64,000 nt of DNA from Euglena gracilis (taxonomy: Eukaryota). Of this stretch, positions 1 to 21,820 are shown in pieces. Under the pieces are notes generated by a model that saw only the letters and a list, made by a program, of their open reading frames with translations, made no database searches and was not told the DNA's origin. Position 1 is the first letter of the stretch. Every line of letters begins with the position of its first letter. The DNA is taken from assembly GCA_039621445.1 (NCBI GenBank), contig CP154954.1, positions 30,322,395 through 30,386,394 of the forward strand, written 5' to 3'. A program made the translations under genes and the position numbers.

Positions 1-1284
1 ATACTTTTTGGCGCCAAAAATATTTGAAAAGGTGCTATTTTTAGCACTTTTCGCGATTTTTCGACCATTTTTTTTGTGGGTCCCCCAGGACCCCCCCAGG
101 GGATGGGTGGGTGGGGGGACCCCCGTCCCCCCCCCCCCCCGGTCTTAAATAAATCAAGAGCGGGAGAGGGTTGGGTGGGTGGGGGCCATACCATTGCCAA
201 GCACGTCGACCCCCCCCCCATTCCCTGCATGGTGGGTGGGGGGGTCGACCACCCCCCCCCACCCTCTGCATGGTGGGTGGGGGGGGGGTCGACCACCCCC
301 CCCCCACCACCTCTTCCCGTGTTTCCGGGAGCACCAATTTTTGGACCCGAAAAAAATTTTCCGGCGCCGGGTGTTTTTTTGACCCGTTTTGGGACCCATA
401 TAGGGGGTCCCCCCCAAAAAACACCCAAAAACCGCATTTTTTCACACCTTCCAAAAATTCAACATTTTCTCAAAATGTTGATTTTGAGAGGTTTTTGAAG
501 CAAAAAAATGCCATTGAAAGTCCAAAAAATTTCAACGAGAAAAAATGGCAGTAAAATTTGACTGTGCCAAAATTTTGTCCACTTTTTTTGACCTTCGTTT
601 TTTTCACCCCCCTCCTAAAAACTACCAATTTTTAACCCTGAAATTTTTGATATTTTTTTGTGAAAAAAATGTGGGTTTCCATCAAAAAATCATGTGTTTT
701 GGGTTCATTTTTCAAAAAAAAATTCAAAAATCTTCCCGGCCAATATCCCCTTTTTCCTGAAATCGGTGAAAATGCTGTGGTGGGTGGGGGGGGTCGACCC
801 CCCCCACCTCCCGGGTGGGGGGGTCGACCACCCCCCCCCCCCCACCAGGCCTTCCCGTTCTGCCCTGGGGGGGTTGTCAGGATTGGCCGACGTGGCCACC
901 TGGCGCCAAAGGCGCCGGATTTTTTTTTTTTGACCAAAAATGTTTTGATTTTTGGCCAATTTTGGCCGAGTAGCCAAAGTGACCAACCCCCTCCCCCAGG
1001 AAGGAGGTGGGAAGTGGGTGACTGGTTTTTGAAAAGTGACTGATTGGTTTTTTGAAAGTGGAAAGTAAGTAAGGGGGTCGGTAAACAATGGTATGGTCCG
1101 GTCCCTTATGTGGGGGGGGGTGTCCCTGCGGAAGCTTGGGCATGGGTTCCGGAGAGAAGCACCAGAAAAAATTGGGCAAGGCGGTCCCCTGCTGGGCTGG
1201 GTGGGGGGTCTTTAAAAGAAGCCGGGGGAGCACAATTGGTCGGCAATCCATGGCCCCTCTGAAGATTAAATCCTCCTTGCAAGG

Positions 1285-1380
1285 ACTGTGAAGTCTGGCA
1301 ACAAGGTGGTTGTGGAGAAGTCCACAGTGCCTGTTCGCTGCAGCGTTGCCATTGAGCGAGTCTTGAAGGCATGCAGTGCT
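1285..1380 (+). CDS. UGDH: UGDH exon ([32 protein letters not shown])
   Basis: EKSTVPV motif; 5' boundary uncertain by a few nt. Confidence 0.85.
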
Positions 1381-4300
1381 GATCAGGGTTTGACGTAAGG
1401 AGGTCGACCGCGCACCGTTTCGAACAATTGCCTTTTGTAACGATCCCCCCACTTTGCACCTATTGCATGCAAGAAGCTCTGGGAGTGTGGAAGCTGAGTC
1501 ACATGAAAATGAAATGCGAGTGGATGGACCGCTTCTAAGCAGAGGAGGGCACCATAAGGAACCTCCATGACTTTTCTTTTGATGATTGCCTCAAAAAACC
1601 CCTATCTGCGACCCACATAGGTCACACATTGGACCCACATAGGACACACTCTGGACCCACATAGGACACACACCCATAGACCCACATAGGACACACTCTG
1701 GCAATGACCCTCTCTGATTCAACCCTGACGACCCACAACGACCCATTGCTGTAATCATTGGTTATACTCTGTTCACATGTTTTGGGCATTAAAAATGCTC
1801 TCCACTTTCCTTGATTACCCCTCTTTCGTGTCAAGTCCAACAAAAATCACAAATATTGAGAACCAAACCTGGATTTTGAAAGCAGGTTGGCAAATTTAGC
1901 AGCACATCACTCCAGAATTAGGAATATGAAAATTATGGCAAAGAAGCATCTGGAAATTTTCTGGGTGTTTTACCAAACCACCCAGAAAGTTTGTTTGTTA
2001 TAATTTTTTTTTGATTGCCCTATACCCAGAGGGTTGAGTTACCCCATCCATTGGCCATGGGTTTGCTCCATTGTGTCACTGTTGTGTGCCACTGATGGGG
2101 TGTTTGACTCCCAAATTATGTTCTTGTCAATCCCTGGTGTGACACCTCTGCCACATTTGAAGTACTGTCAAACCCAGAGCACACCAGTGCTCCCATTTTT
2201 TTCGCCACCATTTTTCACCGGTCATCCTTTCCTCAAAAGTTGGTTCATGACAATCCTGGTCCATTTTTTTCCCACCGAGAGATGCCTTGTCAGAGTCAAC
2301 ACACCACATCGGTGTCATCAGTCTGAGTGCTGACGTGCTGGCGAGTTTCTTGCCGAGGGGACAGCCATTGAGGATCTTCTGAAACCCGACCGTGTGTTGA
2401 TCAGGTATTATTTTGCATATATCTTTTACATATGCAATATAATATATATATATATATATATATGTATTATATATGCTTATTTTAGGGTCAAATTTTTTCC
2501 AACACTTTTAGGCATTCTAAGGAATTTTAAGGCACAATTTTCCAGGGTGGTCCATTGGCGATCCGGGCATCGAACCAACGTTTTTGATTTCGCACGTGGT
2601 CCAAAATCAAGGAAAGTCGAAAAACGCAGTTTTTGAGTTTTGGTTGGATAGACAATGTTTCAGCGATGCCAGAGATCATTTTTCTTCCCGAAGTCGGCCT
2701 GTTTTGCCGAGATTTTGCGTTTCATTTTTGCTCGGTCGGAGAAGATTCTGCTGGTCTCATTTCTTAAGTCATTTTAACGCATTTTAAGGCATTCTGGCCA
2801 AAATTTAAGGTGCATTTTAAGGTATTTTAAGGCTTTTTCAAGGTACTTTTAATGATGATAATAATTATAATAATGCCTGGCGCTGATCGGTGGTTCTCAA
2901 ACACCCAGCGGGCAGAAGGCCTGTGAGCTCCTCTGCTCTGTGTATGCACGATGGGTGCCGCACAGCTGATTTTGGTTGCACATAGTTTCATTTCAACTTC
3001 CATTTCCATCCATTGATGGTTTCCAGTTTTGTGTGTTTCTTTGATCCTAGGTCCCCTTTTTTGTGTTGGTTTTTGGACAGCTCATTGCGAATTGTTTATT
3101 TTTGCCTTTTTAACAGATCCCAAAAATCCAAAATAAACAAAAAATACAATTTTTTTTTGCTGGACACCCAACATGTTTAAACAAAAAAAATCTTGTGATG
3201 GAGACTCAAGCATGTTTGCACTGCTCAAAAAACGAAAGTTTTTTTTTTGAGAAATTGCATGAACATATTTTCTGTATTTCAACAAGTTTTCAACAAGGCG
3301 GATGATAATTGGGTAAGGCTTTCAAAAAGTTAACTCCAAATGTTGAATGGTTCTTTTTTTTAAATTATTTTTTCTGTTAATCTTTTTGTCAACCTTGTTT
3401 GGCTCAATTTTGGAGAAGATTGGAACAAAATGAGTATGATTTTTTGAAGAAAAAAAATGACAATTCTCAGTGACATTTTAAATGGACACAAGAGGACAAC
3501 TTTTTGCAAGGATGCTTTTTACTGCTGTCTGCAGTGTAATTACGCGGGAAAAATTTCTTCTCTTCTTCTGCCCTGTGCTCGGCACGTGCTGCTTGGATCT
3601 TGCTGGAAAGGCGGTAATTCGGACCCTCCACAAAAACAGTGGGGGCGATGCCTGAAGGGGGGGGTTCCCCCCAGTGCCTGCTATTATATCAAACCCGGGA
3701 GGGGAGCTCCGTTCGTGGTGGCACACCCTGCTGCAGCCCTGCCCAGGGATAGTTGGGAAGCCCTTTGGTTTTGAGGTAGGTAGTTGGGGGGTCCGGACCA
3801 GGGTTTGATATAAGGAGGGCGTACATGGTTTAGGTGGGGGGGGTGTCCCCCCCCCACCCCCCCCCCTCCTGGCCCGCAGGGGGGGGGGTCCGGCCCACCC
3901 CCCCCCCCACCTGCCAGGGGGGTCCGGACCGACCCTCGGGGGTTCCCGGGACCCCCCCAAAAAGGGTCAATTTTTTCCTCTGGCGCTTCGCGCCGAAATT
4001 TTTTTGCATTTTTGGCACATTTTTGCCCAAAAAGTGCCCAAAATGGCACTTTTGGTCGTTTTGGGGGGTCAAAAATTTTCGGCCACCCTGACCGCGCACC
4101 TGTTTAGGTGGGGGGGGTGGGTGTCCCCCCACCCCCCCCCTCCTGGCCCGCACGGGGGGGGCCCGGACCCCCCCCCCCCACCTGTCCTTATATCAAACCC
4201 TGGTCCGGACCCCCCCCCGTTGTTGGAGGGGTGTTCAGCAGGTTCCAAAAAATAGTTGTTTTCCTTCCAGCACTTCACTGGAAAGTGTAATTTTCACCTT

Positions 4301-7300
4301 CTTCCTCACTTTTGAGCATATTGCCCACCCATTTTTGGATGTTTTGGTGTCTTCCACACAAAAAAAAAACGGTCAAAAAGTATTTTTTTTGGGGTTTGGT
4401 CTATTTTCAAATGGAATCAGGGATTTTCCAACAATTTTGGACTGGTATCCGTACCTTTGCCCGTCCACAAATTGAAAAAAAAATTTGGTCCCATTTCAGT
4501 GACGAGGTTGGAGGGAGGGAGTCCGACCCCCCCCCCCCCCCCCCCCGCCCCTCAAGGCCTCCCATGCGTCCCTGGCCCTGCCCCTGACAATCTGATGATG
4601 GCCGGGATTTTTCTTTTTGCAATTCTGGTCCTGAGTGGGCGCGCCAGTCCCCCTCCCCCCAAGGTCAGCTGCCTCTGCGGGAGCGGATCCTGACCACCAA
4701 CCAGTGGTCCAGCGAGCTCAGCAAGCTCACCGCCAACGCGTTTCTGGCGCAGCGCATCTCCTCCATCAACTCCATCTCCGCCGTCTGCGAGGCCACCGGG
4801 GCGGACATCGACGAGGTCGCGTTCGCCATCGGCCGAGACTCTCGCATTGGCCCCAACCGGGCCGATACTGTCGATACAACACAACACAACACAAGGCAAC
4901 TCAACCCAAAACACCACACCACACCACACCACACTACATTACAACACAAACCGCGCCGTCGTTTTGTTGGTTTGTGTTGCACAAAAAGGGCGTTCACACC
5001 AGAGTTGCAACACATTTGCCACAGGAGACATGATTACCCAACAAATTAAAATTTTAAAAGCTCCGGGGTTTACTTCTTAAAAAGGTGACGGGCCCACCCC
5101 AAAATCCCAGTGACTGCTGTCCGAAACGTTGTCATGGACAGGCACCCAGAAGCCAGAAACCCCGGATCTTAACACAGGACCTGCCTGGCCGGAAGTTTCT
5201 CAAGGCGTCCGTTGGATTCGGTGGCTCCTGCTTTCAGAAGGACATCCTGAACCTGGTCTACCTATCCAATTCTTTGGGGCTGCACGAGGTGGGGGATTAT
5301 TGGTACAGCGTGGTGACCACCCCTTCGCTGAGACATTTTTTCACTGCACTGGCAATTGCCAGGAATTCCTTCGCCAGCCAGATCCTCCAACAACATGGCC
5401 GTCAACAATTCTAGAAAATTGAATTTTCTTCTTCCCATCAGGCTTTTCTTTTTAAGTGAGGTGCCGACCCCACGGGGGGGGGGGGGCGGTCACGGGGGGG
5501 TGCTGGGGCAGGCACCAGGCTTGTGCTTAGTGGGGGGCCTACCCCACGGGGGGGGGGGGGGGGTGCTCGGGGCAGGCACCCCAAAGCACCTGGTCCGACC
5601 CTCCCCCCTCGCGGGGGGGGTAGGGTTTTGGGGGGTGCCTGCCCCTAGCAGGCACCCCCCTCCGACCCCGGAAAAGGCCATTTTCAATGAAAGTTTTCTG
5701 GGTCCCCCCCCCGGACACCTATCCCCCCCGGGAGGGTGTGCCTGCTAGGGGCAGGCACGCTATAGCACCCCCCCCTCCCCCCCCCGGTTGGTAAGCACAA
5801 GCATGGCAGGCACCAAATAGCACCCATAGGGGGGTCCCCCCTCCGACCCCAGCGCCGAAGGCATCGGGGGCCCGGAAAAGGCCATTTTCAATGAAAATTT
5901 TCTGGGTCCCCCCCCCCCGCACCCCACCCTATAGCACCCCCCCCTCCCTCTGGTCGGTAAGAAATAGTCTGCTTCCCATTTTTCAACCTTTTTCCCCACA
6001 GCACAAAGTTGTCCAGGAGTTTTGAGCCTTTTTGAAACGGATCGAAAGTGCACCGAGTTCCACTTCCTGTTTCAGCGCAGGAGTGGAAGCAGCGATGAAT
6101 GACTATCAACGCCGGCGCTTTGTGGAGATGATCGTGCGGACCATGTTTGACACAGTGACCAACAAGAAGATTGCAGTGTTGGGCTTTGCCTTCAAGAAGG
6201 ACACGGGCGATACGCGGGAGAGCTCCGCCATTCCAGTGTGCAGCTCGCTCCTGGATGATGGAGCACTGGTCCACTGCTACGCCCAGGGACACGGTGCCAA
6301 GTTGTGTCACCACCTGTTTTTTTTGTTATTCCGAAGATTCTTTTTAAACCCCCCCCCTGCCCACCAACCCCCCTGTTTACTGACCACCCCTGGTCGGGGT
6401 TGCCGGTCAGGGGGTGCGTGCGACACCCACCCCCTGGCCAGGGGTTTGGGTTACCTAAAAAAAAAAGCTTTACAGAAGCAGGGGTTTTGGCACTTTGGTC
6501 TTATGACCATCCCCCAGCAGGAGATTGCAGATATGGGGGTGTGCCACGGTCGGTCGGTAAGGGGCTGGTGGCAGGTTGCAAATTCTGCAAAAATTCGGCA
6601 CCTTCGCTGACAGGTCGTTTCCTCTGGGGGATATTCTTTGTCATTGGACCTGTCAGTGGACCCGGGGGGGGGGGGCCTCCAGTTGGCCAGCAGCCTTTTC
6701 CCAGACCATCTCATCAACAAGTTTTATTTGTTTTCCAGGGACTTCGATTTTTTGATTCGACCCCAGCCGAACCCAGTTCCAGCCGGGGGACCCCAAGGGG
6801 GTCAACCGGTAGCCTTTTCCAACCGGCGTAGGAACTCTTTTGCTCATTGGAAGCAAAAACACGAGGACAAAAAAAATCTGGCTCCGGCGATTCTCTGACT
6901 CACTTTTGTCTATTTTGGCCCATTTTGCACCTCCAAAAGCAAAAAAAAACTACGTTCCGAGAGGAAAAAATTTATTGGGGGTTGGGGCAAAAAAGAAGAA
7001 TATTTTTTGGGGACTGAGGGAGGGCAGAGACTGCCAAAATTGTTTTTTCCTGTTGTTTCCTTTTCTTGTTGGAGGTGTGGGGATGAAAAAAATAAAATGA
7101 AATTCCTCCTCTTTTTGGGCATTGGTGTAGGGGTGGGGAGGAGTGTGGGGAGTGCAGGGGGGGGGGGTGGCGGTCAACCTGCCAAAGATTTTTTTCTTTT
7201 TTCAGATGTAGCTCGCATTCAATATTGGTTACCTGTGAGGAGGCTCTGCAGAGCCTCCGCGGAGGCACCCAGGCAACCAGCCTCTGCTGAGGCTCAGGTA

Positions 7301-10300
7301 ACCAGCCTCCACAGAGACTTGGGTAACCAAAAGTCAGGATTCCACACAGGGGTTTTTTTAGTCGTGGACCCCCGGGGGGGGAGGGTGGGTGGGTCCGGCC
7401 CCGGGGGGGGTCCCCCTGGAGGGGGGTGGGATTTCCTTTTCGGCGCCGAAGGTGCCGAAATTTTTTGAAAAGGTGCTTTTTTTAGCACTTCTCGCGATTT
7501 TTCGGCCATTTTTTTGTGGGTCCCCCGGGACCCCCCCCCCCCCGGCCCGGGGGCCCCCCCCAGGGGGGTGGGGACCCCGCCCTCGGTCTTAAAAATCCCC
7601 TGATTCCACATTTGCACGGGCCCCTGCTGGCCTCCCCCTCTTTGGCTGAATTGACGCCCTAATTGCAATAGAGTCCCTGACCCTATTCCTTCAATTAACC
7701 ACAAATACATTTGATTTTGGGACTTTTTGTTCATACAATCACAATTTTGATGCAATACAAACTTTGGCCAAAGGTGGTTCTGAAACCTAAACATAGAGGT
7801 CGCATGGGCCCACCAAAGGGTCGGGCCGACCTCTGGATGAAAATCTTTTAAAGGGGGGGGTGATGCAATGGCTTGGCCATGGTTGACCATGGCCGGAAGC
7901 CCCCCCCCCCCCGATAGAAGCGCGGGGCTGCTGCAAGCGCAGGGTGAATAAAGGACAATCCAAATCCAAATACACTCATGCTGCCGAAGGCGGCGGTCCA
8001 CCACAAACGCACCCCCATTTGATGAGTTTTTGAAAGGAGATCAACAAAAATTGCAGCCAGGGTCCAAATAGAAGCGCACCTAGGCTTCCATTGGGGGATG
8101 GGTTTATCCTAGTTGAGTGACTCTTGGACCCTGTTGGCCAATCAAACAACGCTTCAACTGCTGCATTGGAATCAGGGCGTCGCTTGATGACCCCCTCCCC
8201 CCCGGAGTCCAGCTCAGAGGCTGGAAAACTTGGACTGGCTGGAAATAGGCTGCTGGCTGACCTCCAAGGGTACTGGAATTGGGTCCATCCTGGGGTCGAA
8301 CCAGGTGCAAGGAAAAATCGAAACTGCAAAAACCCCCAGAAGCTGCTAATTATGCAAACAATTGATCTTTTCGACCCCAAAAATTTGCCCTGGCCCCAGG
8401 TAACCCCTGGGTTCCCCCGGAGGTGAGCCGGCCCAAAGCCAACCCATTTTTTTTGCCAATTTTTGGCCCATTTTTGAACCAGGATTTTTTTTAAGTCAGA
8501 AGATCCGGGTGGGTGGGTGGGTGGGTCCTGGACCCCCCCCCCACCCGGGTCCCAGGCAGGAGACATGGGTATGGGTTTCAGCGCAAAGCGCCGAAAGTTT
8601 TTTTCTTTGGGAAATGGCCTCAGACGCATCCGGGGTCCCCCCCCCCCCCCCGCGTCCCACGCCAAGCGGGGTCTTAAAAAGAAGCCTGCCCACCCTGGTT
8701 CAAGGCTTTCTAAGACTTTCAAGGCATTTTGGCCCAAAAATTTAAGGCACATTTTAAGGCATTTTAACGTTTTTAAAGACACCTTAAAAAATGATGATGC
8801 CTGGTTATGGGCAGGCAACCACAGCACAATGCACCCCCCCAGGTTGGTGAAAATAAAACCTGCCCCAAGGTTTCCCATACGACCACAAGCCAGGTAAGGC
8901 GGTTACCCTTGACGTTCCCAACTGGAGTTCTTACCTCTGGGCTACACGAGCCTTGGCACCTATCCCTGCCATGACCCTAAGGTCACTGAGGAGCAAATGC
9001 TTCAAGACCTGAACGAGGTGGCAGAGGGCAACCAGCACCTGCTGAACCAAATAAAGTCTAATTACCGGATTGAGAAGTCGGCCGTGGAGGCGTGTAAGAA
9101 TGCCCACGCCATTGTGGTGTTGGCGAGGGAAGTGCAAATCGCCACCTCACCACCCCACTGATCAGTTGTTTTTTTTTGTGTCAGATTTGTTGGGCTTGGG
9201 GGCCATGATGTCGGCCCAAACAAACAGCTCCCACGGTTGATTGTGACCCCGATTGAAGATTGTCCCTGGAAATTTGACTCTCTCTGTTCAGCTTTCGCAG
9301 AGTCCCCACCAGGACGGCGCTGAACCCTCTCCCAGTAAAGCTTGCTGACCCGGAAGGTTGAACTTCCCTACCGAAGACCGAATGGGACGAGTTCAAGATG
9401 CTGGATTACCAGCAGATCTTCAAGGAGATGACGAAGCCCGCCTTCCTGTTTGATGGGCGCGGGTACCTGGACCTGAAGGTCAGGCCATTGCTCCGGGTGG
9501 GGGATACGATGAACCTCCCTTCTGTGTCCAGACCGCATGGTAATACCTCCCCGGCGGCAACTGTCACCCCCTCAACTTTTGGCAATTTGCCAATGGCAAA
9601 AAAAAATGCACCAAAAGATGGAGTCTTTGGAAGTTTTTGTTGTTGATCAATCTCTGGATGTACGCATGAACTCGGGATTTGAATGCTCAAGAATGTGCTT
9701 GAAGGGATCAGAAGTGTTTTCAAGAGATCGGAAAGTTACTGATTATTCGTCTACCCCAGTGGGCAAATGTCACCCCCTCTGCCCGCCTTTTTGCCGTCCC
9801 CCAATATGTCAGCCCCCCCCCCCACATCTGCTGGCTAAATTGTTGTGTGACAATTGCTGGGGGGGGCAAGGTTCAATATACGGAGGGTGTGCGGGGTTTA
9901 GGTGGGGTGGGGTGCCTCCCCTCCTGGAACAGGGGGTCGGACCATGCCATTGCTTAACACCTGTCCAACTACCCCCCCCCCCCCCCGGGGGTGACTGATT
10001 GGTTTTTTCAGAGGGAACTGACTGGTTTTCTGGCCAAGACCCCCCGGGGGGGCAGGCCCGAAAATGAAAAGTGGCTGGCCTGGCACCAAAGGCGCTGGAA
10101 TTTTTTTGGATTTTTTGAGATTTCTTGGCAAATGTTCATTGCATATTCAAGAGTGCCCCCCCCCCCCCGCCCGGGGGGTAAAGTGACTGACTGGTTTTTC
10201 GGAAAAAGTGACTGACCGGTTTTTTCAGAGTGGAAAGTGACCCCCCGGGTCGCCAAGTAATGGTATGGGTCGGACACCCTCCCCCTGCCAAGGGAGGGGT

Positions 10301-10720
10301 TCCAGACCAACCCTCCCCCAAAAAATCAAAAAACATAGTTTAATTTTCCTTCTGACACTTTTCACTTTGCGCTGGAAAATTTTGACAAATTTCGCCCAAA
10401 AAGTGTCCAAAATGACATGTTTGCCATTTGGGGTTAATTTTTTTTGGCCCGCCGCTTCGCGCTGGCCGAAAATCAGTCAGCCGGACTGCGCCACTGTTTA
10501 GGTGGGGGGGGCACCCCACCTCCCCCCTCCTGCACCGGAGGGGAGGTCCGACCCCCCCCCCCCCCCCCCCTTATATCAAACCCTGGGGGGGGGGGGGCAG
10601 CCCTCTCCAGAAGTTTCCCGCACGGCTGAGTGGAGAAGCCGCGGCCTGGAGCCGGCCCTGCGGGAAATCGGCTTTGATGTCTTTTCCATCGGCCGGACAA
10701 AGGCCCAGCGGTACAATTGA
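1285..10720 (+). CDS. UGDH: UDP-glucose 6-dehydrogenase, 5'-partial, spliced: join(~1285-1380,2141-2176,2343-2398,2885-2959,4677-4854,5193-5314,6091-6280,8973-9121,9376-9477,10654-10720)
   Basis: The joined exons give one open frame (1071 nt, ending TGA at 10718-10720) with colinear UGDH motifs: [62 protein letters not shown] (catalytic Cys), [40 protein letters not shown]. The N-terminal exons lie upstream of the window; the first exon start is approximate. Confidence 0.95.
1381..2140 (+). other. Nonconventional intron 1 (3+4 geometry)
   Basis: GAT-CAGGGTTTGAC ... GTCAATCCCTG-GTGT; 10/11 paired; no GT-AG. Confidence 0.85.
2141..2176 (+). CDS. UGDH: UGDH 36-nt exon ([12 protein letters not shown])
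   Basis: Supplies the conserved LSNP preceding EFLAEG; both flanking introns have terminal stems. Confidence 0.85.
2177..2342 (+). other. Nonconventional intron 2
   Basis: AGCACACCAGTGCTC pairs with GAGTGCTGACGTGCT (11 WC + 2 GU of 15); CAC at +4..+6, GTG at -8..-6. Confidence 0.85.
2343..2398 (+). CDS. UGDH: UGDH exon ([19 protein letters not shown])
   Basis: Conserved motif. Confidence 0.92.
2399..2884 (+). other. Nonconventional intron 3
   Basis: GAT-CAGGTATTATT ... AATAATGCCTG-GCGCT. Confidence 0.9.
2885..2959 (+). CDS. UGDH: UGDH exon ([25 protein letters not shown])
   Basis: Conserved motif, in frame with neighbouring exons. Confidence 0.9.
2960..4676 (+). other. Nonconventional intron 4
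   Basis: GCA-CAGCTGATTTTGG ... CCAAGGTCAGCTG-CCTCT (11 WC + 2 GU). Confidence 0.9.
3799..4202. mobile_element. MITE with CAG...CTG ends, nested in intron 4
   Basis: TIR CAGGGTTTGATATAAGGA / TCCTTATATCAAACCCTG; flanked on both sides by GTCCGGAC (8 bp, palindromic). Confidence 0.85.
4677..4854 (+). CDS. UGDH: UGDH exon ([32 protein letters not shown]...DSRIGP)
   Basis: Highly conserved central helix. Confidence 0.95.
4855..5192 (+). other. Nonconventional intron 5
   Basis: AAC-CGGGC ... GCCTG-GCCGG; short 5-bp stem; no GT-AG. Confidence 0.8.
5193..5314 (+). CDS. UGDH: UGDH exon ([24 protein letters not shown]...YWYSVV)
   Basis: Catalytic GGSCFQKD motif. Confidence 0.95.
5315..6090 (+). other. 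Nonconventional intron 6
   Basis: GAC-CACCCCTTCGCTGAGACA ... TGTTTCAGCGCAGGAGTG-GAAGC (15 WC + 1 GU of 18). Confidence 0.9.
6091..6280 (+). CDS. UGDH: UGDH exon ([10 protein letters not shown]...[15 protein letters not shown]...VHCY)
   Basis: Conserved C-terminal domain motif. Confidence 0.95.
6281..8972 (+). other. Nonconventional intron 7 (3+4 geometry)
   Basis: GCC-CAGGGACACGGTGCCAAG ... CTTGGCACCTATCCCTG-CCAT. Confidence 0.9.
7347..7602. mobile_element. MITE with perfect 8-bp TSD, nested in intron 7
   Basis: TIR CAGGGGTTTTTTTAG / CTTAAAAATCCCCTG; TSD ATTCCACA at 7339-7346 and 7603-7610; related copy at ~1-160. Confidence 0.9.
8973..9121 (+). CDS. UGDH: UGDH exon ([10 protein letters not shown]...[12 protein letters not shown])
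   Basis: DPKV and AHAIVV motifs. Confidence 0.92.
9122..9375 (+). other. Intron 8, nonconventional stem; a 1-nt shift reads GC...AG
   Basis: AGGGAAGTGCAA (9126-9137) pairs with TTGAACTTCCCT (9358-9369), 11/12. Confidence 0.85.
9376..9477 (+). CDS. UGDH: UGDH exon ([34 protein letters not shown])
   Basis: TEW and FDGR motifs. Confidence 0.93.
9478..10653 (+). other. Intron 9, nonconventional stem; overlaps an in-frame GT...AG alternative
   Basis: GGT-CAGGCC ... GGCCTG-GAGCC. Confidence 0.8.
9867..10585. mobile_element. MITE of the 3799-4202 family with secondary insertions, nested in intron 9
   Basis: Left end CAAGGTTCAATATACGGAGGG, right end CTTATATCAAACCCTG; G-runs of at least 8 on both flanks. 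Confidence 0.7.
10654..10720 (+). CDS. UGDH: UGDH last exon ([21 protein letters not shown])
   Basis: LREIGF..SIG C-terminal motif and stop codon. Confidence 0.9.
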
Positions 10721-10826
10721 GCACTATCCTTATCCATCTGCCCCTGATGGCGTCCGCTCATTCCGACGTCCCCTCTCACCGGACTGCCCCTCTCAGATGG
10801 GGAAGGCTGCATGTGTGTGGGTGTGG

Positions 10827-10831
<5 letters not shown>

Positions 10832-10858
<27 letters not shown>
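10832..10858. repeat. (TG)n microsatellite in probable UGDH 3' UTR
   Basis: Seen directly. Confidence 0.9.
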
Positions 10859-10861
<3 letters not shown>

Positions 10862-10928
10862 TGTCACAACAGAAATGTACTGCTCCTGAGAATTCCCCCT
10901 CCCCAGGCACCAAGTGGGGCTGGTTTTG

Positions 10929-11355
10929 CAGGGGGGGGAAATTGATATCCGCAATTTTTCCGCAATTTCCGCAATTTTTCCGCAATTTTTTTTGCATTTT
11001 TTTTCGCAGAATTTTTTCCCACCACCGAAGATGGAAGATGAGTTCAAGCCATTCTTCAAATGGATCAACAGGTGTGCTATTGTGTTTTGTCCCCCCCCCA
11101 GTTTACCAATTTTTCTCACAGGTGCACCACTGGTCACAGGATTGGGTGCGTCCTACCTGTGCAAGAACTTCAAGCGTGTTGATTTGTGCTCGCCTGCATC
11201 GACGTGGGTGTTGTGGTGTTCTGAACCTCACAATTGAAAAATTTCTAAGTCCCCTCAAGCAGAAATGTGTATATTCCGGATATCAATTTTTCCGCAATTT
11301 TCCACAGTTTTTCCGCAATTTTTCCGAAGGCCTCCGATATCAATTCCCCCCCCTG
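10929..11355. mobile_element. MITE with 7-bp TSD
   Basis: TIR CAG(G)nAAATTGATATC / GATATCAATT(C)nTG; TSD GGTTTTG. Confidence 0.88.
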
Positions 11356-13644
11356 GGTTTTGGACGGAAGGTCCCTACACTGCGGTTCCAATTGCGATTA
11401 CACTGTGATTTCCTTTGGACGTCCTTTTTTTGCATTTTCTTTCCAGAGGCTTGCAAATGCAATTAACCCCCCCCCCCAAATAATACCCCCCCCCCCCCCG
11501 GTTTATTATTTGGGCACCCGAAGTCGGGGTCCAGGGGGGTTTATTATTTGGGCAAAAATTTCGAAGACAAAAATTGACCCGAAAACCCCTCCACAGGCTC
11601 CAATGGTCACTTTTTTGGCATTTTGGGGCTTTTTTTTGAAAATTGGGTGCTTTTTTGGCAGGGCTCCATCAAATTTTTTTCCAAAGCGTTCAGAAAATTG
11701 GGGCATTTTCTAGAGGAATTTTGCAGAATGCGTATACCAGAACTAACAAAAGAGCAATAGTCCGACATGTTAGGGATATGGTGATCAAACACTTCCCAAC
11801 ACCGCACGGGATGGGTCTGGGTGGGGGGGGGGAAGTGTTTGCCAGACGAGGCACTCCAGGGCACCGCGAGCCTGAAAGTGGTCCCCCAAATAAGACCTGA
11901 CCCAAAATTTGGGCCAGGTCCCAAAAAGCGTCACTTTCCAGGTTTCCAAAAACACCCAAAATTTTTCATCTGTGCTCTACGCCATGTGTCAACATGTGTC
12001 ATGTGTGTTAAAAATTGAATTCCCCCAGTGTTGTTGTGCTTCAAAAGTGTCAAATAATTGTAATCCAGGAAAAATTTTCATCTCCAGCGCTTTGCACCGT
12101 CAGTGGGAGTCTGGAATTGGCGGGGGGGTTTTTTTATAGATTTTTTCTTTGTCGGCCCAGTGGGGGGGGGGCTTCCTTTTGGGGAGGTCTTACAGTAATA
12201 ATAGTGGGCATAATAGGACACCTGAAAATTGGTGGGTCAAACCTAGGGCAGAACGGGAATCGGCCAAACCGCCAGGGTGGTGGTGTGGGGGGGGGGGTCG
12301 ACTACCCCCCCCCCCTGCATTGGCGGTGGTGATGGTGTGCACACACCATCAGGGGGACCCTGGACCCCCCCCCCCCCCGGGGCTGGTGGCCAGGCCGGAC
12401 GAAGGGGTAAAGGGCACCAAAAAGGCAGCCACAGTGCACACAGGGGGCTGGCTGGTGGCTGTTTTCCCGTGTCCAGCAAAATGGCTAGCCAGTGGACCCC
12501 TGCCTCCCGGGGCTTAAGCAATGGCCTGACCAGATGGTCACCCCCGGCCGGGGGCTTAAGCAATGGTCGGTATATAGGGGTGGTCGGTGGACAAGAGGAC
12601 AGGGTGGGTACCCCCCCTTTGCCCAACGACCACCCCTAACCCCCGGTCGGGGGTTGTAGATCAGGGGGTGTGTATGACCGCCCCCCGTGGTCGGGGTTGT
12701 AGGTGACCTTGGGAAAACAGGGGTTTTTTCAGGTCAGGGTGTGTATGCCCCCCCCCCCCCGTCGGGGGTTGTAGGAACCCGGTCGGTGAGCAAAAGCACC
12801 TCGAAACTGACATTGACCCGGAAATTTTTGGTTTTGAGGACGGGCAAACACTCAGAACGCCGGTTCAGGTTGCCGCCTGAACCGGCGTTCTGGACACGTG
12901 TTTGCATCGAAGTCAGGGTCAAGATAAAATCCTTACCCTGACCCTACTCCTGAAATAGCCCAAAATTTTTGTCTGTTATCTCACGACAGACTCTCCCCCC
13001 AAAACCCTTGGGCCCGGAAGGGAATAGCCCCTTCTGAGGGCTTTGAGCGGATTCTGGGGTGACCATCCTGGGGGGTCGGGCTGACTTTGGGATGGGACAC
13101 GGACCTCTGGGTCGCTTCAAAAATGCCTGATTTTGCTTTAAAAATGAAACAGAATGCTCATTTTTTGAAATTTTTTGAACGCTCCTCATGCGGAAAACAC
13201 CAAACCATTAAAAAAATTGGCAATATGCTCAAAAATGAGGGAGGAAGTTGTTTTTTTGTTCATTTTCCGGCGCGCAGCGCGGGAAAAAATTGCCATTTTT
13301 GAAACCTGCTGAGGAGGGTCTGGATACACCCCAACATCCAGGGGGGGGGGTCGGCAACCCCCCACCGCCTGATTCGATACCGACGGGCTTCCCATCAATC
13401 CCTGTGGAGGTTTGGTTCTACATAAGGAGGGTATCACCCCTTCTTGACTGCCAGACCCCGCTGTGGCCGGACCCCACCCCAAGGTCAAGTTTTATTTAGG
13501 CGATTTGCACCGAAATAATTTTGGAAATTTTCGCAAGTTTGCCAAAGGTGCCCAAAACGGCATCTGGGTTGATTTTGGGGTTTCGGAAAAATTTTGGCCA
13601 AAAGTCGGTCATCTTGGCTGCATGTCTGTTTGTTTGAACCAGGG

Positions 13645-13884
13645 CAGGGCTGTGCGGGAATACCCGCAACCCTATGGGTGGTGGGTGGGGGGGGGTCGAC
13701 CAGTCCCCCTTCCTGGTGGTTGGGGAGGGGCCGACCCCCCCCCCACCAGGCCTTCCTGTATATCCAGGGGCGCTGATTTTTTGTTGAAATTGTCCTTCGG
13801 CGCCAAAGGAGTTTTTCCCTGCGCGGGTGCTGTGGTGGTTGGGGGGGGGTTCGACCCCCCCCCAGGCTTTCCTGTACAACCGTA
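13645..13884. mobile_element. Probable MITE
   Basis: Degenerate TIR CAGGGCTGTGCGGGAA / TTCCTGTACAACCGTA; flanks AACCAGGG / GACCAGGG (7/8). Confidence 0.5.
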
Positions 13885-15991
13885 GACCAGGGGATATATT
13901 TTTAAGGTGTAAATTTTCAAATTTTAAGGCGTTTTTCAGGGTTTTTAAAGGCATTGTTCCTGCTTGCCTTTTTTGGGGGCGATTATTGGACCTGTTGGAA
14001 CCTGAAGCTCAATATCCTCCCCCAATGGCTCTTTCCCGTGCTTCCCAGGACCAAGCCTTCCCCGTTCCATGCCCGCCTGTTGCTCCTCCGGGAACAACCT
14101 CACCTCCCTAGAACGATCTCCCAAGGTATCTCAGGTATCTCTGGTGATCAATCATTGGGGGTGGGTGGGAGAGGTCCTTGTGAAATTCCCATTCAGAGAA
14201 TTCTTCAGGCATCCTCATCAGCAGGATTCCACTTTGCTGTGGACCCCTATGCTCCCCAATCCAAATGTCGGCCGAAATGGATCTGAGGATTTGCCAAACC
14301 AGAGATCCAGACAAAGTTCTTTGGGGGTGCTGCAACGTCAGTCAGGTTGGTTTCTCCAAATGCCACACGATGCCTTGTGGCCGGGCAAGAAGATGTGTTT
14401 TGTACCAGGCTGCAATTTTTACTGTGTGTCAGCCGAAGACTGCCAAGCTGTGTCCGAACCGGTCACCGTAGTTGGCAGGCTGCTTCCGATCGACCGGCTG
14501 TTGCAGACAGGCGGCCTTCTCATTGGTATTTGTTCGATGGTGGGTTTGAGAGAACCGTTTGAATGCTGTGTCACAGGTAGCTTTGAGGACCAGAGGTCCA
14601 CCAGCCAGAACTTGCCAGCCAGAACTTGCCAACCAACCTCTAATTTTTTCCCCCTCTAGCTCTTTAATTTTTGACGCCTTTCTCAGGTAAATGCTCAAAC
14701 AGACTTTCTTTCATTTAGGGTGCCGCGGTGAAGTCTGCTGCGGCACAAAAAAAATTCCGCGGCGCACAATCAAATTTTTGCCGCGCACCCGCGGCGCACC
14801 TGAAACGCTGCCGCGGCGCACCAACAACGCACCTGCAGCACAGCAATGCCGCGGGGATGGCTATGCCGCGGTGCACGCAATGCACAGAAAGAAATCTTCT
14901 GCGGCACACACGGTCACAAAATTTCCTGTGCCGCGGCGCAGAAAAAAAAAATTCCGCGGCGCACTAAATGAAAATCTGTTTTCAAATGCACTTTTGACAA
15001 ATTTGAGGGAGGAGGAAAAGATGGAAGACTTTGGATTATACTCTGACTCCAACCCACCTGTGTCCCAGGGAGGTGGGGAGAGCATGGCCACCCGGACAGA
15101 GTTCATTTTCTCTCCACATGCCAATTTGTCTTCAATTACATTTGGTCTGAACAGGGTGAGCTGCAGACGCCCACACCAGGGGTTTTTTCAGTCTTGGACC
15201 CCCTCCTGGGGGGGGGGAGGGGGGGGTCCCTTGGACCCCCTCCTTTGGGGGGGAGTTGGGGGTTGGGGGTAGGGGCCGGTGGGTATTTCAGGCCAGCCCG
15301 GCATCGCAGGTCGGACCCATTGGGGGAGGTCCACAAGCCAGCTGGCTTGAAAAAAGCTGGCGGGGCCCCACCCTTCGACAACGAAGCAGGCTCAGAGCCA
15401 GAAAACTTGGGTTGCTGGAAAAAAAGCCGCTGGCCACCTTTTTAAAGGCCTTGGGGGGTGGGCTCAGACTAGAAATTTGGACTGGCTTACCCCCCCCCCC
15501 CGAGGGGGGGCTTGACCCTGGCTGGACCTGAGGTGGGCCGGCCTGGGTCGAAATCGGACAATTGCCTGAAAAATGACCTGCAAGACAGTTTTGAACGTCT
15601 GACAACCCCCCCCCAAAACGCCCAAGACACCCCCCAAGGCACCATTTGTGGCCATTTTTGCACACCCTTTCCAAAATTTTCGGTGTTTTGCGCCTAAAAT
15701 TTTGAGCTGGACCTTGCAAAAAGGGGCTGGCTGGCAGGGCCAGCACCCCCCTTGGGGTGCTGCTGCAGCTGGGCTGGGCCAAAATCGGGGCTGGCAGCAG
15801 CAGCCCCCCCTTCCCCCCCCCCCCCAGGGGGTCTTAAAGAGATGCATGCTGCTGGCTGGTGGACCCCCCCCAAAGGGCCCCCCATCTGGAGTTGAGCCAA
15901 GCTTCTACCAGGCTGAAACCTGGGAGGGGGTCTTGGAATGCCCTGGTGGTGGGCCAAAAAGTGCTCAAAGATGGCCTTTTCTGGGCTTATG

Positions 15992-16443
15992 CAGGGGGGG
16001 GGGAAATGCAACTTGCATAATTTGCATTTTTTTGCATAATCGGCTTTTCCCGAAATTTGCATTTTTTTGCATTTTTTTGCATTTTTTTGCATAAAATATT
16101 TTCCCCGGAAAAAATTTTTGTAGTTGGTTGCCATATGTTTGAATTTTTTTGCATATTTTTGCATTTTCTACATATAATATTTTGCCCTGGAAAAAATTTT
16201 TGTTGTTGGTTGCCATATTTATGGACTTTTTTGCATTTTTTTTGCATTTTTTTTGCATAAAATATTTTGCCCTGGAAATTTTTTTTGATCTTAGGCAGCA
16301 AAGCTCTGTTATAGTCCAGCTTTTTCTCAGGTTTTTCATGCAAGTTGCATTTTTTTGCATTTTTTTGCATTTTTTTGCATTTTTTTGCATTTTTTTGACT
16401 TGCATAATTTGAAGGGCCCAGTTGCATTTTTTCACCCCCCCTG
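15992..16443. mobile_element. MITE with 7-bp TSD and internal (TTTTTTGCA)n repeats
   Basis: TIR CAG(G)nAAATGCAACT / AGTTGCATTTTTTCA(C)nTG; TSD GCTTATG. Confidence 0.88.
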
Positions 16444-19400
16444 GCTTATGGCGCCGGAAGTGCCCTGGCCAAGTGCCCAGGCACTTTTGGCTCTGCCCCC
16501 CCCCACCGGGAGGTCGGATCTGGGTGCCTTGCTGCCCAGGCAGCCCCCCCAGGGTGGGGTCACACTGCCTTTAATCAGCCTCGCACCAAAAAGTCGAAGG
16601 CAGCTGCCTTCTACTCGGCCCCCAGGGGAAGGCAAGGGGGGGGGGTCGTATGAGGAACCCTGGTCCGATGTCGGGGGAAAGTCTGGGTTATTTCCGGGGG
16701 ATAGTTCCAACCGGATTCCCGGAGGATCACCATTTTTTAGCAAATTCGGAATTTGCGTTGAATTTTGGTAAAATTCCAAAAAACTGCGACCTAAGGACCA
16801 AACTGAGCCAGCATCCCCCCCCCCCCAGGGTTTTGAGAAAACCCCAATTGCAATAATTTTTTAGCTGAAGCGGAACTGCACAAAATTTTTTTCTTTCGAC
16901 CGAAACACCCACACACTCCTGGTAGATCGGGACCTCCTTTTGGAAGCCCAAAAACTGACCGTAAACATCTTTTGCAAAGTGAAATTCCTTCTGCGTTGAA
17001 AGAGATCTTCCACCCAAAAAAAAAATGCTTTGGGGTACCTGATGGAATAACGGAAACAAATGAAAGCCCTGCAACCCAAAGCTCTGCATCCCGCCATTGC
17101 TTTGTCTGTGCTTTGCTTACCATTAAATGCGATTGAACTGAACGATGTTTGCGAATTCAATTCCTGGATCACAGCATGTCCACAACACCCAACACACAAT
17201 TTTGATGGGCACATCTCTGGGCCTCCCAGTTTCACACCTTCATCAGCAGAGATGGGAGGAAGGCTTTGCTTTAAGGCGTAATTTCCACAAAGCAAGGTTT
17301 CTTTAAAAGCATTCTTTAAATTTTTTTCAGTGTTTTAATTATTTTTTTCAAATTCCATTTCAAAGAAAAGTTGAAGACCCCCCCCGAACTATATCTGCCC
17401 CGGTACCCTTTGGCACGGGGTAGAACATGCACCTTGGGCTCCGCACCTTGCCCTTTGTGAGGCCATGGCTTTTCGCCAGCGGTGTTGTTTGGATCGGCAT
17501 TAGTGCATTTTTCGCCGGAGTAAGCAGATTCCGAGTTAACCTTTGGCCACCCAGAAGACAGGAACAGACACCTCAATCTGGCCTCCATTGGCCTCTTGAT
17601 TTTGAATACAATGGCCTCCGTTGGCCTTCTGAGGGGAGGCTGCTTGCTGCATTGATGTGCAGCTCCTGAGGGGTTCATGTTTGAGAGAGCTGTGGGGTAA
17701 GTTGGACATACCTTTCCCCAGTGGCAGTTTTGCAGCATGAGCTTCTGGCTTCCATAGCCTTGCAGCTTGGCTCCCTGCCCTTGATGGTGATGATGGCTGC
17801 CATAGCCTTTTTGAAAAGGGTCTCCATGCCCTTGATGCCGTCCATTTTCCCTTGGAATATTCCCCCTGGGTGGGGGGTGGGGATGTGAAAACGGGGGGGG
17901 GGTAGTCTCCCGGACCTGTCTTCCCATTTCTTTCCCTCTGGGCTGTGGGCTACTGGTGTCTTTGTCTGCTCGACCTTCTTGCCACCACTGTCCAGGGTCC
18001 ATGGCCGTCGTTCAACTGTTGGAATTGAAATTTTTTGGGGGAAATGGAAGGTGGGGGGGGATGCGACAGCCAAGGACTGGCGCTCTGCTCTTGCCCCGTC
18101 ATCGTCTCCAGCGCCTGCTGCTCCTCCCTCTTCTTCACTTCAGGTTTCTTCCTTGAAATTCCTTTTAATGCCGCTTGAAAGTTTGGTTCCATGTTGGTTG
18201 CTCCGGCGCCTGCTGGACCTCCATCTTCTCCAGCTACTGCTGCCTTCGCTGGGGTTCTTTCTCGCTCCGCTGGGCCGCTGGACACCAGGTATGTTGCATC
18301 TTTCATGTAAATCAATATTTTCTTCCTCCGCTTTTCCTTATCGTCTGAATTGCTTTTTTGTCCTCTGTATTGATTGGTTGTTGCGGTGAGCGTTGTTGAA
18401 CTCGTTGAGTTGAAATTCTTTCTCCTAGGTCGAAGGGCAAAATTAGGAGTCAGCCAACTCCGGCAACAAAAAAGCAGTAAGAAGCACCTCCCACGCACAC
18501 ACAAACACACCAGAGCAGAGCAGCCGGCAAGGAAAGCAGGACCTCGCCATCTCGCAGTGCGGAGCCCGAGTGCTCCGGCCAGCCTGTACCCGACTTTATT
18601 TTCACTCGACCCCCGGGGGGGTGCTCCCAGCTGCTGGCTGGCTGAACCCCCCCTGGGGGTAGGGTGCGAGCAAGGCATGGCGTCACAAGGGCAAAGGGAG
18701 CATCAAGACCTCAAGGCCAGTGGAGGCAATTTCAATCAAAATCAGGAGGCCATTGGAGGCCAATATATGATTCAAAATCAGAAGTCCAGTGAAGGCCACT
18801 GCATTCAACATCACCACATCAGAGTGTACGTCCCGCCATTTCTCTTTCGCTTTTCCCTTTTCCCCGAAAAGGCGCGGGAGTAACAAAATATAAAACTTAT
18901 AAACCCTTTGTCCTCTTATGCAGAGCACAAGGCAAAGGGAGAGAAGGTTTTGTTTTGGGACCCGAGTCCCTTTTCTGTTGTTCTTGTTGACCTCTTCGGG
19001 TCTTGATAAAGAGAACAAAAATAATTGTAAAGATTGGGGTCTTCGCCCCTCAAAAGAAAACCTACTTACAAAACCAACCCAATAAAACCTCAAGCTAAGT
19101 AGGAACCAAGTGTTTCTTATTCTGCAAGAGAATTCCCTAACTGGGACGTCATCACCAGTTAGCGCAGAATCACCTAGCACTGTGTGCAGCTGGCCAAAGG
19201 CCAGTTAACAGGCATTCGCCCTTTGTAGCACACAATGTCATGGCATCATGGCTGCCTGGTACACATCCCCCTCCCAGGGCTATGCCCGATTTCCCTCCTG
19301 GACCAGGCCAGTCGGGATGCCAGGCACAGTCCTGTGTGGGATGGGCACCAGGAACCATGCTTGGTTCCAACTTACCTTAGGGTATAATATGTCACCCAAA

Positions 19401-20639
19401 ACCCGAAAACGCCCTAAAGAGGTTACCGCTTAGGCGGCTACCTACTTTTTTTGCGTTAAAGGGTTGGGGACAAGTATAAGCCCAAGGAAAATGGGGCTGG
19501 AAGGTTTTCCATTCCAGAAACCCATCCTCCCTGTTTGGGTGTGCCAAAGGCACTTGAGGTGGTATATTCTAGAACTCAGAAAAGAATTCTGGGGTGGGTG
19601 TGGAGGGGGGGGGGGGCACCTGGCCAGTCATACCTGACCAGGGAGAGAAGAACTACTTTACAGAACCAACTGCCGGAGCCAGCTTTTGCCCAGGGGAGGA
19701 AAGGGAGAGGAGTGGGGGGCTGGTCTTAGGACCGTGAAAAGGAATTTTTGCTGGCGGGCAGCCTTATTGGCCTTAGGGCCGAAAAGAAGTTGACTACTTA
19801 TTACGGTGTGCGCGCTGCACGCTGTGCGTAGTCTTACTAGCGCCGTGGCGCTTTTGTGGTTCTTCGGTCTGCACCAAGACGATGTACAGCGCCGAAGCGC
19901 TTTTGGGACTTCGCCCTTTTGGATGGGGGGGACATTCAGCCGAAGCTGGTTTTGGGACTTCGCCCTTTCAGGGGGGGGGGGGGCTTTCAGCCGAAACTGA
20001 TTTTTGGGACTGCGCCCTTCCGGGGGGGGGGGGGGGGCTTTCAGCCGTAGCTGATTGTTGGGGGGGCTTCAGCCAATTGTGTGCAAAGCGTTCAGTTTTC
20101 AGCCGAGGCTGACTTTTTGTGTAAAAAAACGCAAACCGTTTTCTGGTTTGGTTGTAGTTGTGACTAAAAAATCGAAAAAATTCGAAATTTTAGTAAAGAT
20201 TTTTTTTTAAAAAAAATTCGTCCGAAGACGATTGTAACGGTTGATTGTGATATTTGAAGATGGTTTATTTGCAACACATTGTATGAGTTTGTTAAACCCT
20301 AAAAATTTGGTGCATGTCCATGCTTTGTACGCTTTGAGCCTGTCGGTCCTTGTCGGGGGGGGGGGCAGGCAAAATGCTGTCCACGGCACTTTTTCAAACA
20401 ATATTTGTAAAAAACATTGGACAATTCGCAACGCAAAGTAATGTTGTATGTTACAGCAGTGTAGTGAGGCATAAGCCTCCACAGAAGGAAATTATAAAGA
20501 ATAAACCTCGTTCATGGATACGAGTATTGTACGTAAAGTACTTGTCCACGGCTGTCCTGCAGAGTAAGTAACAGGCAAGGATCAGCCTTTTTGTAGTATA
20601 AAAAAAACATGTGAGTTCGGGGGGGCTCTGACTTGGCAC

Positions 20640-21106
20640 TGCCGGTGGGGGGGGCTGTGGCTTCGCACATTCGGGGGGGGGGGGGGGGGTGGCTTCACAC
20701 ATTCGGTGGGCTGTGACTTCACACATTCTGGGGGGGCTGTGGCTTCGCACATTCGGGGGCGGGGGGGGGGGCTGTGGCTTCGCACATTCGGCGGGGGGGG
20801 GGGGGGGCTGTGGCTTCGCACATTCGGGGGGGGGGGGGCTGTGGCTTCGCACATTCGGTTCGGTGGGGGGGGCTGTGGCTTCGCACATTCGGTGGAGTGG
20901 GCTGTGACTTCGCACATTCGGGGGGGGTTGGTGACTTCGCACCGCACTGCCGGGGGGGGGGGGGCGGGTGACTTCGCACCGCACTGCCGGGGGGGGGGCT
21001 GGTTACTTCGCACCGCACTGCCGGGGGGGGGGGCTGGTGACTTCGCACCGCTCTGCCGGGGGGGGGGCTGGTGTCTTCGCACCACACTGCCAGGGGGGGG
21101 GGGCTG
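20640..21106. repeat. ~30-bp minisatellite (Gn-CTGTGGCTTCGCACATTC)
   Basis: Tandem units seen directly. Confidence 0.85.
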
Positions 21107-21515
21107 GTAAAAAAAATTTGCAACCGTTGTCACTTGTAGTGAAATGATGTTGAGGAAGGTCAACAAAAAAATTTGTTCGTGTAAAAGAAAACTTGCATTC
21201 GCAAAGAAAACCTGCCTTTCTGGCAATTATGGCTGTCCAGCCTCGAACACAAGCAAACTGCACACCTAGAATCAGTGTGCGCTCAGATTTCAAAGGCAGC
21301 TATGGCTGTTCAGCCTCAAAGCAAACCGCACACCTGTGAACAGTACAGGTGCAGATTTCACTGCAGTTCATTATACTGTGGTGTGTTCCTGTGTGGTGTG
21401 GTTCGGTGTGGCTGTCTGCTGCTGCTGCTGCTGCCGCCTGCTGCGTCTGCCTTCCTGCTGCGGCTGCCACTTGCCTGCTGCGGCTTTCTGTCTGCTGCGG
21501 CGGTTTGCCTGCTGT

Positions 21516-21820
<305 letters not shown>

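Follow-up and report, generated by a model that had tools for sequence, protein, structure and literature searches.

We analysed a 64,000-nt stretch of DNA from Euglena gracilis (contig CP154954.1, positions 30,322,395 to 30,386,394; hereafter the window), which carries the 3' two-thirds of a gene for UDP-glucose 6-dehydrogenase with nine nonconventional introns. Where these introns have been removed from the RNA, the five exon nucleotides before the joint and the three after it form an 8-mer (positions 1-8, or -5 to +3) with the consensus G-Y-n-n-Y|R-A-C, where Y is a pyrimidine, R is a purine, and the bar marks the joint. We propose that this consensus has two layers. The outer positions (G1/C8, Y or T at position 2, and A7) would reflect a roughly two-fold symmetric landing preference of a transposase of the hAT type, and positions 5|6 would reflect an asymmetric Y|R rule for cleavage by the splicing machinery. 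A transposase target consensus overlaid by a cleavage rule is the best-supported explanation of 32 junctions and 8 clean duplications, and we rate its chances as slightly better than even.

Pfam matched UDPG_MGDP_dh and UDPG_MGDP_dh_C on the exon open reading frames (ORFs) of this gene, and the spliced frame of the ten-exon model (Table 1) is open to the stop codon at 10718-10720. Reads that begin at 1277 bear upstream exon letters that are missing from the window, so the 5' part of the gene lies outside it. RNA joints were taken from two RNA-seq raw-read runs and two contig runs aligned to positions 1000-20999. Eight coding joints are among the joints listed, each with about 150-480 read pairs in each raw run and with borders that can slide by 0-3 nt. 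The joint of intron 3 is not among the joints listed and was placed by the open reading frame and the code N3-CAG...CTG-N5|R. The reads also confirm a mini-exon of 36 nt (12 residues) at 2141-2176, which was implied by the junctions listed in a preliminary description of this sequence. At two exonic positions the RNA differs from the window (A>G at 4836 in about two-thirds of the reads and T>C at 9399 in about 70%); these look like allelic or strain variants, not editing.

The nine introns are ordinary members of the euglenid nonconventional class. At none of the eight listed coding joints can GT-AG or GC-AG ends be reached by sliding (as printed, the ends are TG..TG, GA..GC, GC..CT, AA..GG, GA..GC, GC..AT, GG..AA, and GG..CC). 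The 22-nt ends pair with each other in 9/9 introns, at -14.1 to -26.9 kcal/mol (mean -20.2), while 72 mismatched pairs of ends average -9.9 kcal/mol (standard deviation 3.7; P 2.7e-6). All nine junctions have R at +1. Compared by eye with the splicing code 5'-N3-CDG...CH'G-N5-6|R (Nomura et al. 2025, PMC12501133), introns 3, 4, 5, and 9 fit exactly, and introns 6 and 8 keep the 3/5 spacing with other paired letters in place of the code letters (CAC/GTG and GAG/CTA, respectively).

The borders that can slide were placed by the published rule (3 nt before CAG and 5 nt after CTG), which falls within the range allowed by the reads in 8/8 listed cases. The preliminary description had given nine junction 8-mers with G1 in 7/9, Y2 in 9/9 (T in 6), R7 in 8/9 (A in 6), and C8 in 5/9, and we reproduced the strings and the counts letter for letter. 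Summed over these four positions, 29 of 36 cells match. Phase-matched draws from the same gene average about 15/36 (standard deviation 2.9), and none of 100,000 draws reached 29, with or without conditioning on Y|R. This statistic describes a pattern that was picked after the data were seen, so we added a composition test that is blind to the pattern. It gave P ~0.001 for positions 1-4, 7, and 8 together, with P ~0.0005 for positions 1-2, ~0.05 for positions 7-8, and 0.31 for positions 3-4. The full motif GY....RC is present at 4/9 junctions, as compared to 22 of 1,071 positions in the coding sequence. GTG opens five of the nine strings (0.3-0.5 expected), and does so in two different codon phases. 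Codon bias had been named beforehand as what might account for the motif entirely; the phase-matched test within the same gene (P ~0.001) indicates otherwise.

A similar bias is found in published euglenid introns. We tallied by hand the tables in PMC3935182 (covering tubA and tubB in 20 species) and PMC4770533 (tubB, hsp90, and gapC from six E. agilis strains), which give five exon letters on each side of the intron. We used the first-listed row for each independent position that was classified as nonconventional or intermediate/nonconventional (23 positions), and left out additional strains or species at the same position. (One row has just four upstream letters, so n = 22 for position 1.) These nonconventional positions have G1 in 12/22, Y2 in 20/23, R7 in 17/23 (A in 15), and C8 in 16/23, while 11 conventional positions from the same tables have G1 in 4/11, Y2 in 7/11, R7 in 4/11, and C8 in 4/11. 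Summed across cells, this is 65/91 versus 19/44 (Fisher P 0.002). If the published positions are pooled with those of this gene, the counts are 19/31 for G1, 29/32 for Y2, 25/32 for R7 (A in 21), and 21/32 for C8. In three cases, the published tables also show duplications that are identical at 8/8 positions in the 5+3 register: GTCCCAAC at gapC intron 4 of one E. agilis strain, TTCCTAAC at tubB 12 of Lepocinclis, and ATCCCTCC at tubB 13 of Monomorphina.

Part of this motif is already in print. Y at -1, R at +1, A at +2, and C at +3 (positions 5-8) are covered by the junction rules of Milanowski et al. 2014 and 2016 (PMC3935182 and PMC4770533): in the latter, R begins both the intron and the downstream exon, whose second letter is A in 43/55 cases and whose third letter is C in 30/55. 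We found no statement about G at -5 or Y at -4 in the available text on euglenid introns, and these letters may show in the published logo figures, so the left half of the motif appears to be a modest addition. A MITE-like origin of euglenid introns (MITE, miniature inverted-repeat transposable element) and repeats resembling target-site duplications are also published ideas. What is new, as judged from the same portions of the literature, is the target consensus and the reading of the 5+3 exon letters as a single 8-bp target with complementary outer letters.

If junction 8-mers are old insertion sites, then elements that have not been spliced should show the same bias. We scanned the window for elements with CA..TG ends that match at 10 or more of 14 positions. 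The 4,306 such pairs include six with exact abutting repeats of length 8 and one of length 7; there were no exact repeats at lengths 6, 9, 10, or 11, and none in each of seven displaced controls. We set aside one of the six (24041-25616, GGCCTCAC), whose ends are weak and whose 8-mer belongs to a longer direct repeat of 10 nt. The other five are listed in Table 1. Looser scans with up to two mismatches in the duplication gave 28 matches in register and 17-24 in the displaced controls, and because this is about as often, we kept only the exact duplications. The five duplications have G1 in 4/5, Y2 in 4/5, R7 in 3/5, and C8 in 4/5, or 15 of 20 motif cells as compared to about 7.6 predicted from base composition. 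The full GY....RC motif is found in 2/5 of them and in 1.3% of the 8-mers in the window. Thus the comparison of junctions with MITE duplications that had been suggested earlier shows the same outer bias in sequences that are not spliced. An automatic survey of the ends of repeat families was too noisy, so we also picked 13 insertion events by hand from the scans, leaving out tandem repeats, low-complexity flanks, and internal segments of larger repeats. These have G at the first target position in 8/13 and C at the eighth in 8/13 (P 0.007 each), but we give this result little weight because the set was hand-picked.

One of these elements is the 404-bp MITE at 3799-4202. Its 8-bp flank GTCCGGAC, as noted previously, is indeed present on both sides. 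The inverted repeat around this MITE extends 13 nt past the element (GGGGGGTCCGGAC...GTCCGGACCCCCC, 3786-3816 / 4185-4215); the element was inserted into the middle of a palindromic motif, other copies of which occur in the window's GC-rich repeats, and its duplication is a perfect palindrome. The 831-bp element that encloses it belongs to a family with a second end at 13404. Near the 290-bp element, uninterrupted copies of the target motif are found at about 5571 and 5747. Copies related to the 256-bp MITE are at 10-97 and at 15177, and a degenerate 3799-family copy (about 9867-10585) surrounds the 325-bp element. When we scanned metagenomes with a 17-base element end, we found 55 loci, all of them chance matches (of the 26 bases that follow, no more than 11 match those of the element).

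Among the nine introns, 1 and 3 belong to CA..TG families of this kind, as degenerate members. Intron 1 has CAGGG(T/A)TTGAC at both ends, and its 5' end (1384-1403) is identical to the terminal repeat of the 3799 element at 18 of 20 letters; BLAST found no internal homology between the two. Intron 3 has terminal repeats CAGGTATTATT / CAGGCATTATT (11/14 matching) and flanks GTGTTGAT and GCGCTGAT that agree at 6/8 positions. Over its final ~110 nt, intron 3 aligns with another copy of the family, inside intron 7; the similarity breaks off exactly at CCTG, which leaves 5 nt to the 3' splice site. Since the homology of the family stops at CCTG, we take those 5 nt to be host flank. For copies of the flanks across all nine introns, the 5+3 split gives the best agreement among nine registers. 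This agreement is weak support, as expected if the insertions are old (see below).

In our proposal, a nonconventional intron would be built as [5 exon nt | 3 nt - CAG...paired ends...CTG - 5 nt | 3 exon nt]. Splicing would cut 3 nt before CAG and 5 nt after CTG, and since 3+5=8, it would remove the element along with 8 nt. The 8-mer formed by the two exons would then be the original insertion target, preserved by coding constraint. We read it in this way because the CA..TG transposons in the window make duplications of exactly 8 bp. The preliminary description had interpreted the junctions as a palindromic target preference of a transposase, and much of this holds up: the 8-mer behaves like a reconstituted 8-bp target, its outer letters fall into complementary classes, and the duplications share the bias. 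The complete dyad does not.

Specifically, symmetry about a centre between -2 and -1 had been suggested, and in the pooled junctions it extends only to the outer pairs. G1 and C8 are equally common (19/31 vs 21/32, P 0.80). Y2 and R7 are both strong and are not mirror images, as T:C is 15:14 at position 2 and A:G is 21:4 at position 7 (P 0.02). The inner pairs fail, with Y3 at 17/32 vs R6 at 30/32 (P 4e-4) and R4 at 11/32 vs Y5 at 26/32 (P 3e-4). No individual junction 8-mer is a palindrome. The known Y|R bias at the junction had been suggested as a possible part of the target preference; in our reading it reflects a splicing rule at 5|6 instead, and Y5 is found in just 2/5 of the unspliced duplications. 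We also considered a symmetry centre at the splice junction itself and rejected it, as R at +4 is found in only 11/23 published rows and Y at -4 in 20/23 (hand count).

Knock-in experiments bear on what these positions do. Natural and fully artificial introns were reported to be properly spliced at AACCA|ATG or, in another cassette, AACCC|GTG, which contain 0/4 of the consensus letters (PMC12501133), so the motif is not required for splicing. In the same experiments R at +1 mattered and the last upstream exon letter did not. Together, the knock-ins, the duplications, and the lack of covariation described below favour a landing preference at positions 1, 2, 7, and 8 and a splicing rule at 5|6. 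We infer both that the bias is a transposase's preference and that the transposase was hAT-like.

Several observations weigh against this proposal. Just five clean duplications are found in the window, and two of these (GTCCGGAC and GGTCGGAC) share one recurring GC-rich motif and may not be independent samples. Pfam identified no transposase on 247 ORFs of the window, and none of the domains of a hAT transposase (BED finger, RNase H-like core, and hAT dimerisation domain). At intron -5, the copy of position 1 on the intron side, G is present in only 5/23 published rows (hand count), though in 6/9 of the introns here, and a published genome-wide logo is reported to have CCTG without a subsequent G. 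The inner four positions are asymmetric, C is as frequent as T at position 2, and G is rare at position 7. Intron 2 is off the spacing of the code, and introns 1 and 7 have 3+4 spacing. The nine introns' own flank pairs agree at 3.89/8 positions, as compared to 3.17/8 for mismatched pairs (permutation P 0.058). Finally, the knock-in assays are so coarse that the exon letters could still have a modest influence on the efficiency of splicing.

Alternatively, the motif might belong to the nonconventional splicing signal, as its portion within the exons. In that case -5, -4, +2, and +3 would be read by the machinery or by a hairpin that extends outward, and only those insertions that happened to fit would survive in exons. 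R at +1 is experimentally required, and A at +2 and C at +3 are also found on the intron side (intron +3 is C in 14/23 published rows by hand count), so constraint is possible instead of history. A CCAGG logo that starts at intron +3 has been published. In an extended helix, -5 would face +3 and -4 would face +2. However, the introns splice at a knock-in site that lacks every consensus letter, the unspliced duplications have the same outer letters, and these exon positions do not covary. The odds ratio for G1 with C8 is 2.8 (P 0.17), and positions 2 and 7 form Watson-Crick pairs in 7/32 junctions and G-U pairs in 4 more, with C opposite A in 11/32 (hand count). For lack of covariation we rejected pairing of -5/-4 with +3/+2 in the RNA, and we think that a splicing signal is an unlikely source for the outer letters.

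Another possibility is that both the repeats and the consensus arose as staggered double-strand breaks were repaired and new introns were filled in, with no transposase preference. Authors of earlier work proposed this for an 8-nt repeat at a recent gapC intron, and most of the introns here do not have recognisable family relatives. On the other hand, several families in this 64-kb window have terminal repeats that match and 8-bp duplications that are exact, two of the introns belong to such families, and duplications of other lengths are absent (0 at 6, 9, 10, and 11 bp; 1 at 7 bp). We consider break repair to be improbable. A small-sample accident, or the codon or amino-acid bias of one gene, is very improbable: there are nine junctions in this gene, five of them follow a GTG or CTG codon, and the pattern was chosen post hoc, but phase-matched tests within the gene reject this explanation, the GTG-type starts fall in two phases, and independent published genes and species repeat the pattern, which their conventional introns lack.

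If a transposase target overlaid by a cleavage rule is correct, then past choices of target are preserved like fossils in the exon junctions, a hAT-like enzyme that makes 8-bp duplications is the one to which the motif points, and there is a reason why the exon rules in print (Y|R, A at +2, and C at +3) occur at both borders. More tentatively, the 3-nt/5-nt cutting rule may exist because splicing erases, at the level of RNA, an 8-bp-duplicating hAT-like transposon along with one copy of its duplication, with the G-T....A-C preference still legible across euglenid junctions. In that scenario, the two cuts on a fully paired flank would produce a 2-nt 3' overhang, a hint of a double-stranded RNA endonuclease and a ligase, not a spliceosome. 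Junction logos could then be used to identify the family of transposase that seeded ~70% of the introns in these genomes.

Table 1. Coordinates of the gene, its introns, and the elements discussed in the text (junctions are five exon letters, a bar, and three exon letters)
Feature	Position	Strand	Length	Junction or duplication	RNA joint	Ends and other details
UDP-glucose 6-dehydrogenase gene, 3' two-thirds	1277..10720	+				ten coding exons; 5' part outside window
Coding exons	1277-1380, 2141-2176, 2343-2398, 2885-2959, 4677-4854, 5193-5314, 6091-6280, 8973-9121, 9376-9477, 10654-10720	+				
Intron 1	1381..2140	+	760 nt	GTGCT|GAC	1379|2140, slide 3	flanks GTGCTGAT and GGTGTGAC
Intron 2	2177..2342	+	166 nt	ACCCA|GAG	2176|2343, slide 3	CAG 8 nt inside 5' end, CTG 2 nt from 3' end; ends pair, -20.1 kcal/mol
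Intron 3	2399..2884	+	486 nt	GTGTT|GAT	2398|2885 (inferred)	
Intron 4	2960..4676	+	1717 nt	GTGCC|GCG	2959|4677	GCA-CAG...CTG-CCTCT|G; end pairing -21.0 kcal/mol; nested elements inside
Intron 5	4855..5192	+	338 nt	GCCCC|AAG	4854|5193	AAC-CGG...CTG-GCCGG|A; flank copies agree 5/8
Intron 6	5315..6090	+	776 nt	GTGGT|AGC	5314|6091, slide 0	CAC...GTG replaces CAG...CTG at 3/5 spacing; no sliding possible; end pairing -26.7 kcal/mol
Intron 7	6281..8972	+	2692 nt	GCTAC|GAC	6280|8973	GCC-CAG...CTG-CCAT|G
Intron 8	9122..9375	+	254 nt	GTGTT|GAC	9121|9376	8-bp helix AGGGAAGT/ACTTCCCT with 3/5 spacing
Intron 9	9478..10653	+	1176 nt	CTGAA|GGC	9477|10654	GGT-CAG...CTG-GAGCC|G; nested elements inside
Second copy of intron-3 family, 3' part	8700..8811	+				inside intron 7; ends ...GATGATGCCTG, then GTTATGGG
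MITE	3799..4202		404 bp	GTCCGGAC (exact, 8 bp)		terminal repeat CAGGGTTTGATATA (14/14)
Element enclosing 404-bp MITE	3744..4574		831 bp	GCCCTGCC (exact, 8 bp)		CAGGGATAGTTGGG / CAGGGACGCATGGG (10/14)
Element	5516..5805		290 bp	GCAGGCAC (exact, 8 bp)		CAGGCTTGTGCTTA / CATGCTTGTGCTTA (13/14)
MITE	7347..7602		256 bp	ATTCCACA (exact, 8 bp)		CAGGGGTTTTTTTA / CAGGGGATTTTTAA (12/14)
Element	9943..10267		325 bp	GGTCGGAC (exact, 8 bp)		CATGCCATTGCTTA / CATACCATTACTTG (11/14)

Beyond the stop codon of the UDP-glucose dehydrogenase gene there are three further splices (10792|14070, with alternatives 10794|14071 and 10795|14069; 14117|14382; and 14507|17077), and 17166 is where the molecules end. The ends of these non-coding introns pair (for example, GGGGAAGGCT/AGCCTTCCCC), and the 3/5 spacing is not kept. 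The three 8-mers, CCCTC|TGC, ACGAT|CGG, and GCAGA|CAA, have Y2 and R7 in 3/3 and G1 and C8 in 1/3 each.

Other repeats in the window include a perfect 40-nt hairpin at 12853-12892 (CAGAACGCCGGTTCAGG...CCTGAACCGGCGTTCTG) and a related cluster of GGACGCCGGTTCTGTCC inverted repeats near 49 kb (48996-49900); the repeats related to GGACGCCGGTTCTGTCC are another family with CAG...CTG ends. Remains of retroelements, with zinc knuckle, reverse transcriptase, and RNase H domains, are at 30563-31213 (- strand), 53029-54409, and 60525-60899. A long CAGC/GCTG-type microsatellite at 21540-21820 (read as CAGCCAGC...) gave a spurious PT-repeat match in Pfam on the ORF at 21303-22103.

The introns of this gene resemble other euglenid nonconventional introns in that they do not have GT-AG ends, their ends pair, and their borders can slide; they have Y at -1, R at +1, A at +2, and C at +3, and CAG/CTG, CGG/CTG, or an equivalent pair at +4 to +6 and -8 to -6. 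The elements in the window are like hAT transposons and MITEs in their 8-bp duplications, their short terminal inverted repeats that start with CAG or CAT, and their symmetric outer preference. The terminal inverted repeats of hAT elements have a YARNG-type consensus; the element ends here are CAGGG, CAGGC, and CATGC, with 10-14 of 14 positions matching. The hAT element Hermes makes 8-bp duplications at targets of the form 5'-nTnnnnAn-3' and has CA at its ends (PMC10368747, PMC3030943). T2 and A7 are found in 15/32 and 21/32 of the pooled junctions, in 2/5 and 3/5 of the duplications in the window, and in 3/3 and 2/3 of the published duplications. Both letters are enriched in the pooled junctions, but C is as common as T at position 2, which differs from hAT, as do the additional preference for G1 and C8 and the removal of these elements from RNA by host splicing. 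Among the papers searched we found none that ties Euglena introns to hAT, and hAT is not mentioned in a review of introners (Mob DNA 2024, PMC11282704). It would take a transposase to prove membership in this family, and from their sequences we describe the elements only as hAT-like.

The preliminary description had compared the motif to the preferences of both hAT and P elements. The 8-bp duplications, the CA(G/T) ends, and the enrichment of T2 and A7 are hAT-like; Pfam found no transposase in the window, and a P-type enzyme is also possible. P elements have 8-bp duplications, a palindromic GC-rich target motif, 31-bp terminal repeats, and a THAP-type transposase. The duplication length and the symmetric target motif are shared with the elements here, some of which start with CATG or CATA, but the terminal repeats here are about 11-20 nt long instead of 31 bp. 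Finally, introners (PMC11282704) start as MITE-like insertions that turn into introns, with splice sites provided or framed by the duplication and with the mRNA restored, as we propose here. Introners rely on the ordinary spliceosome and on duplications of 3-5 nt, whereas in Euglena a machinery that does not use GT-AG would remove the element together with a full 8-nt duplication.

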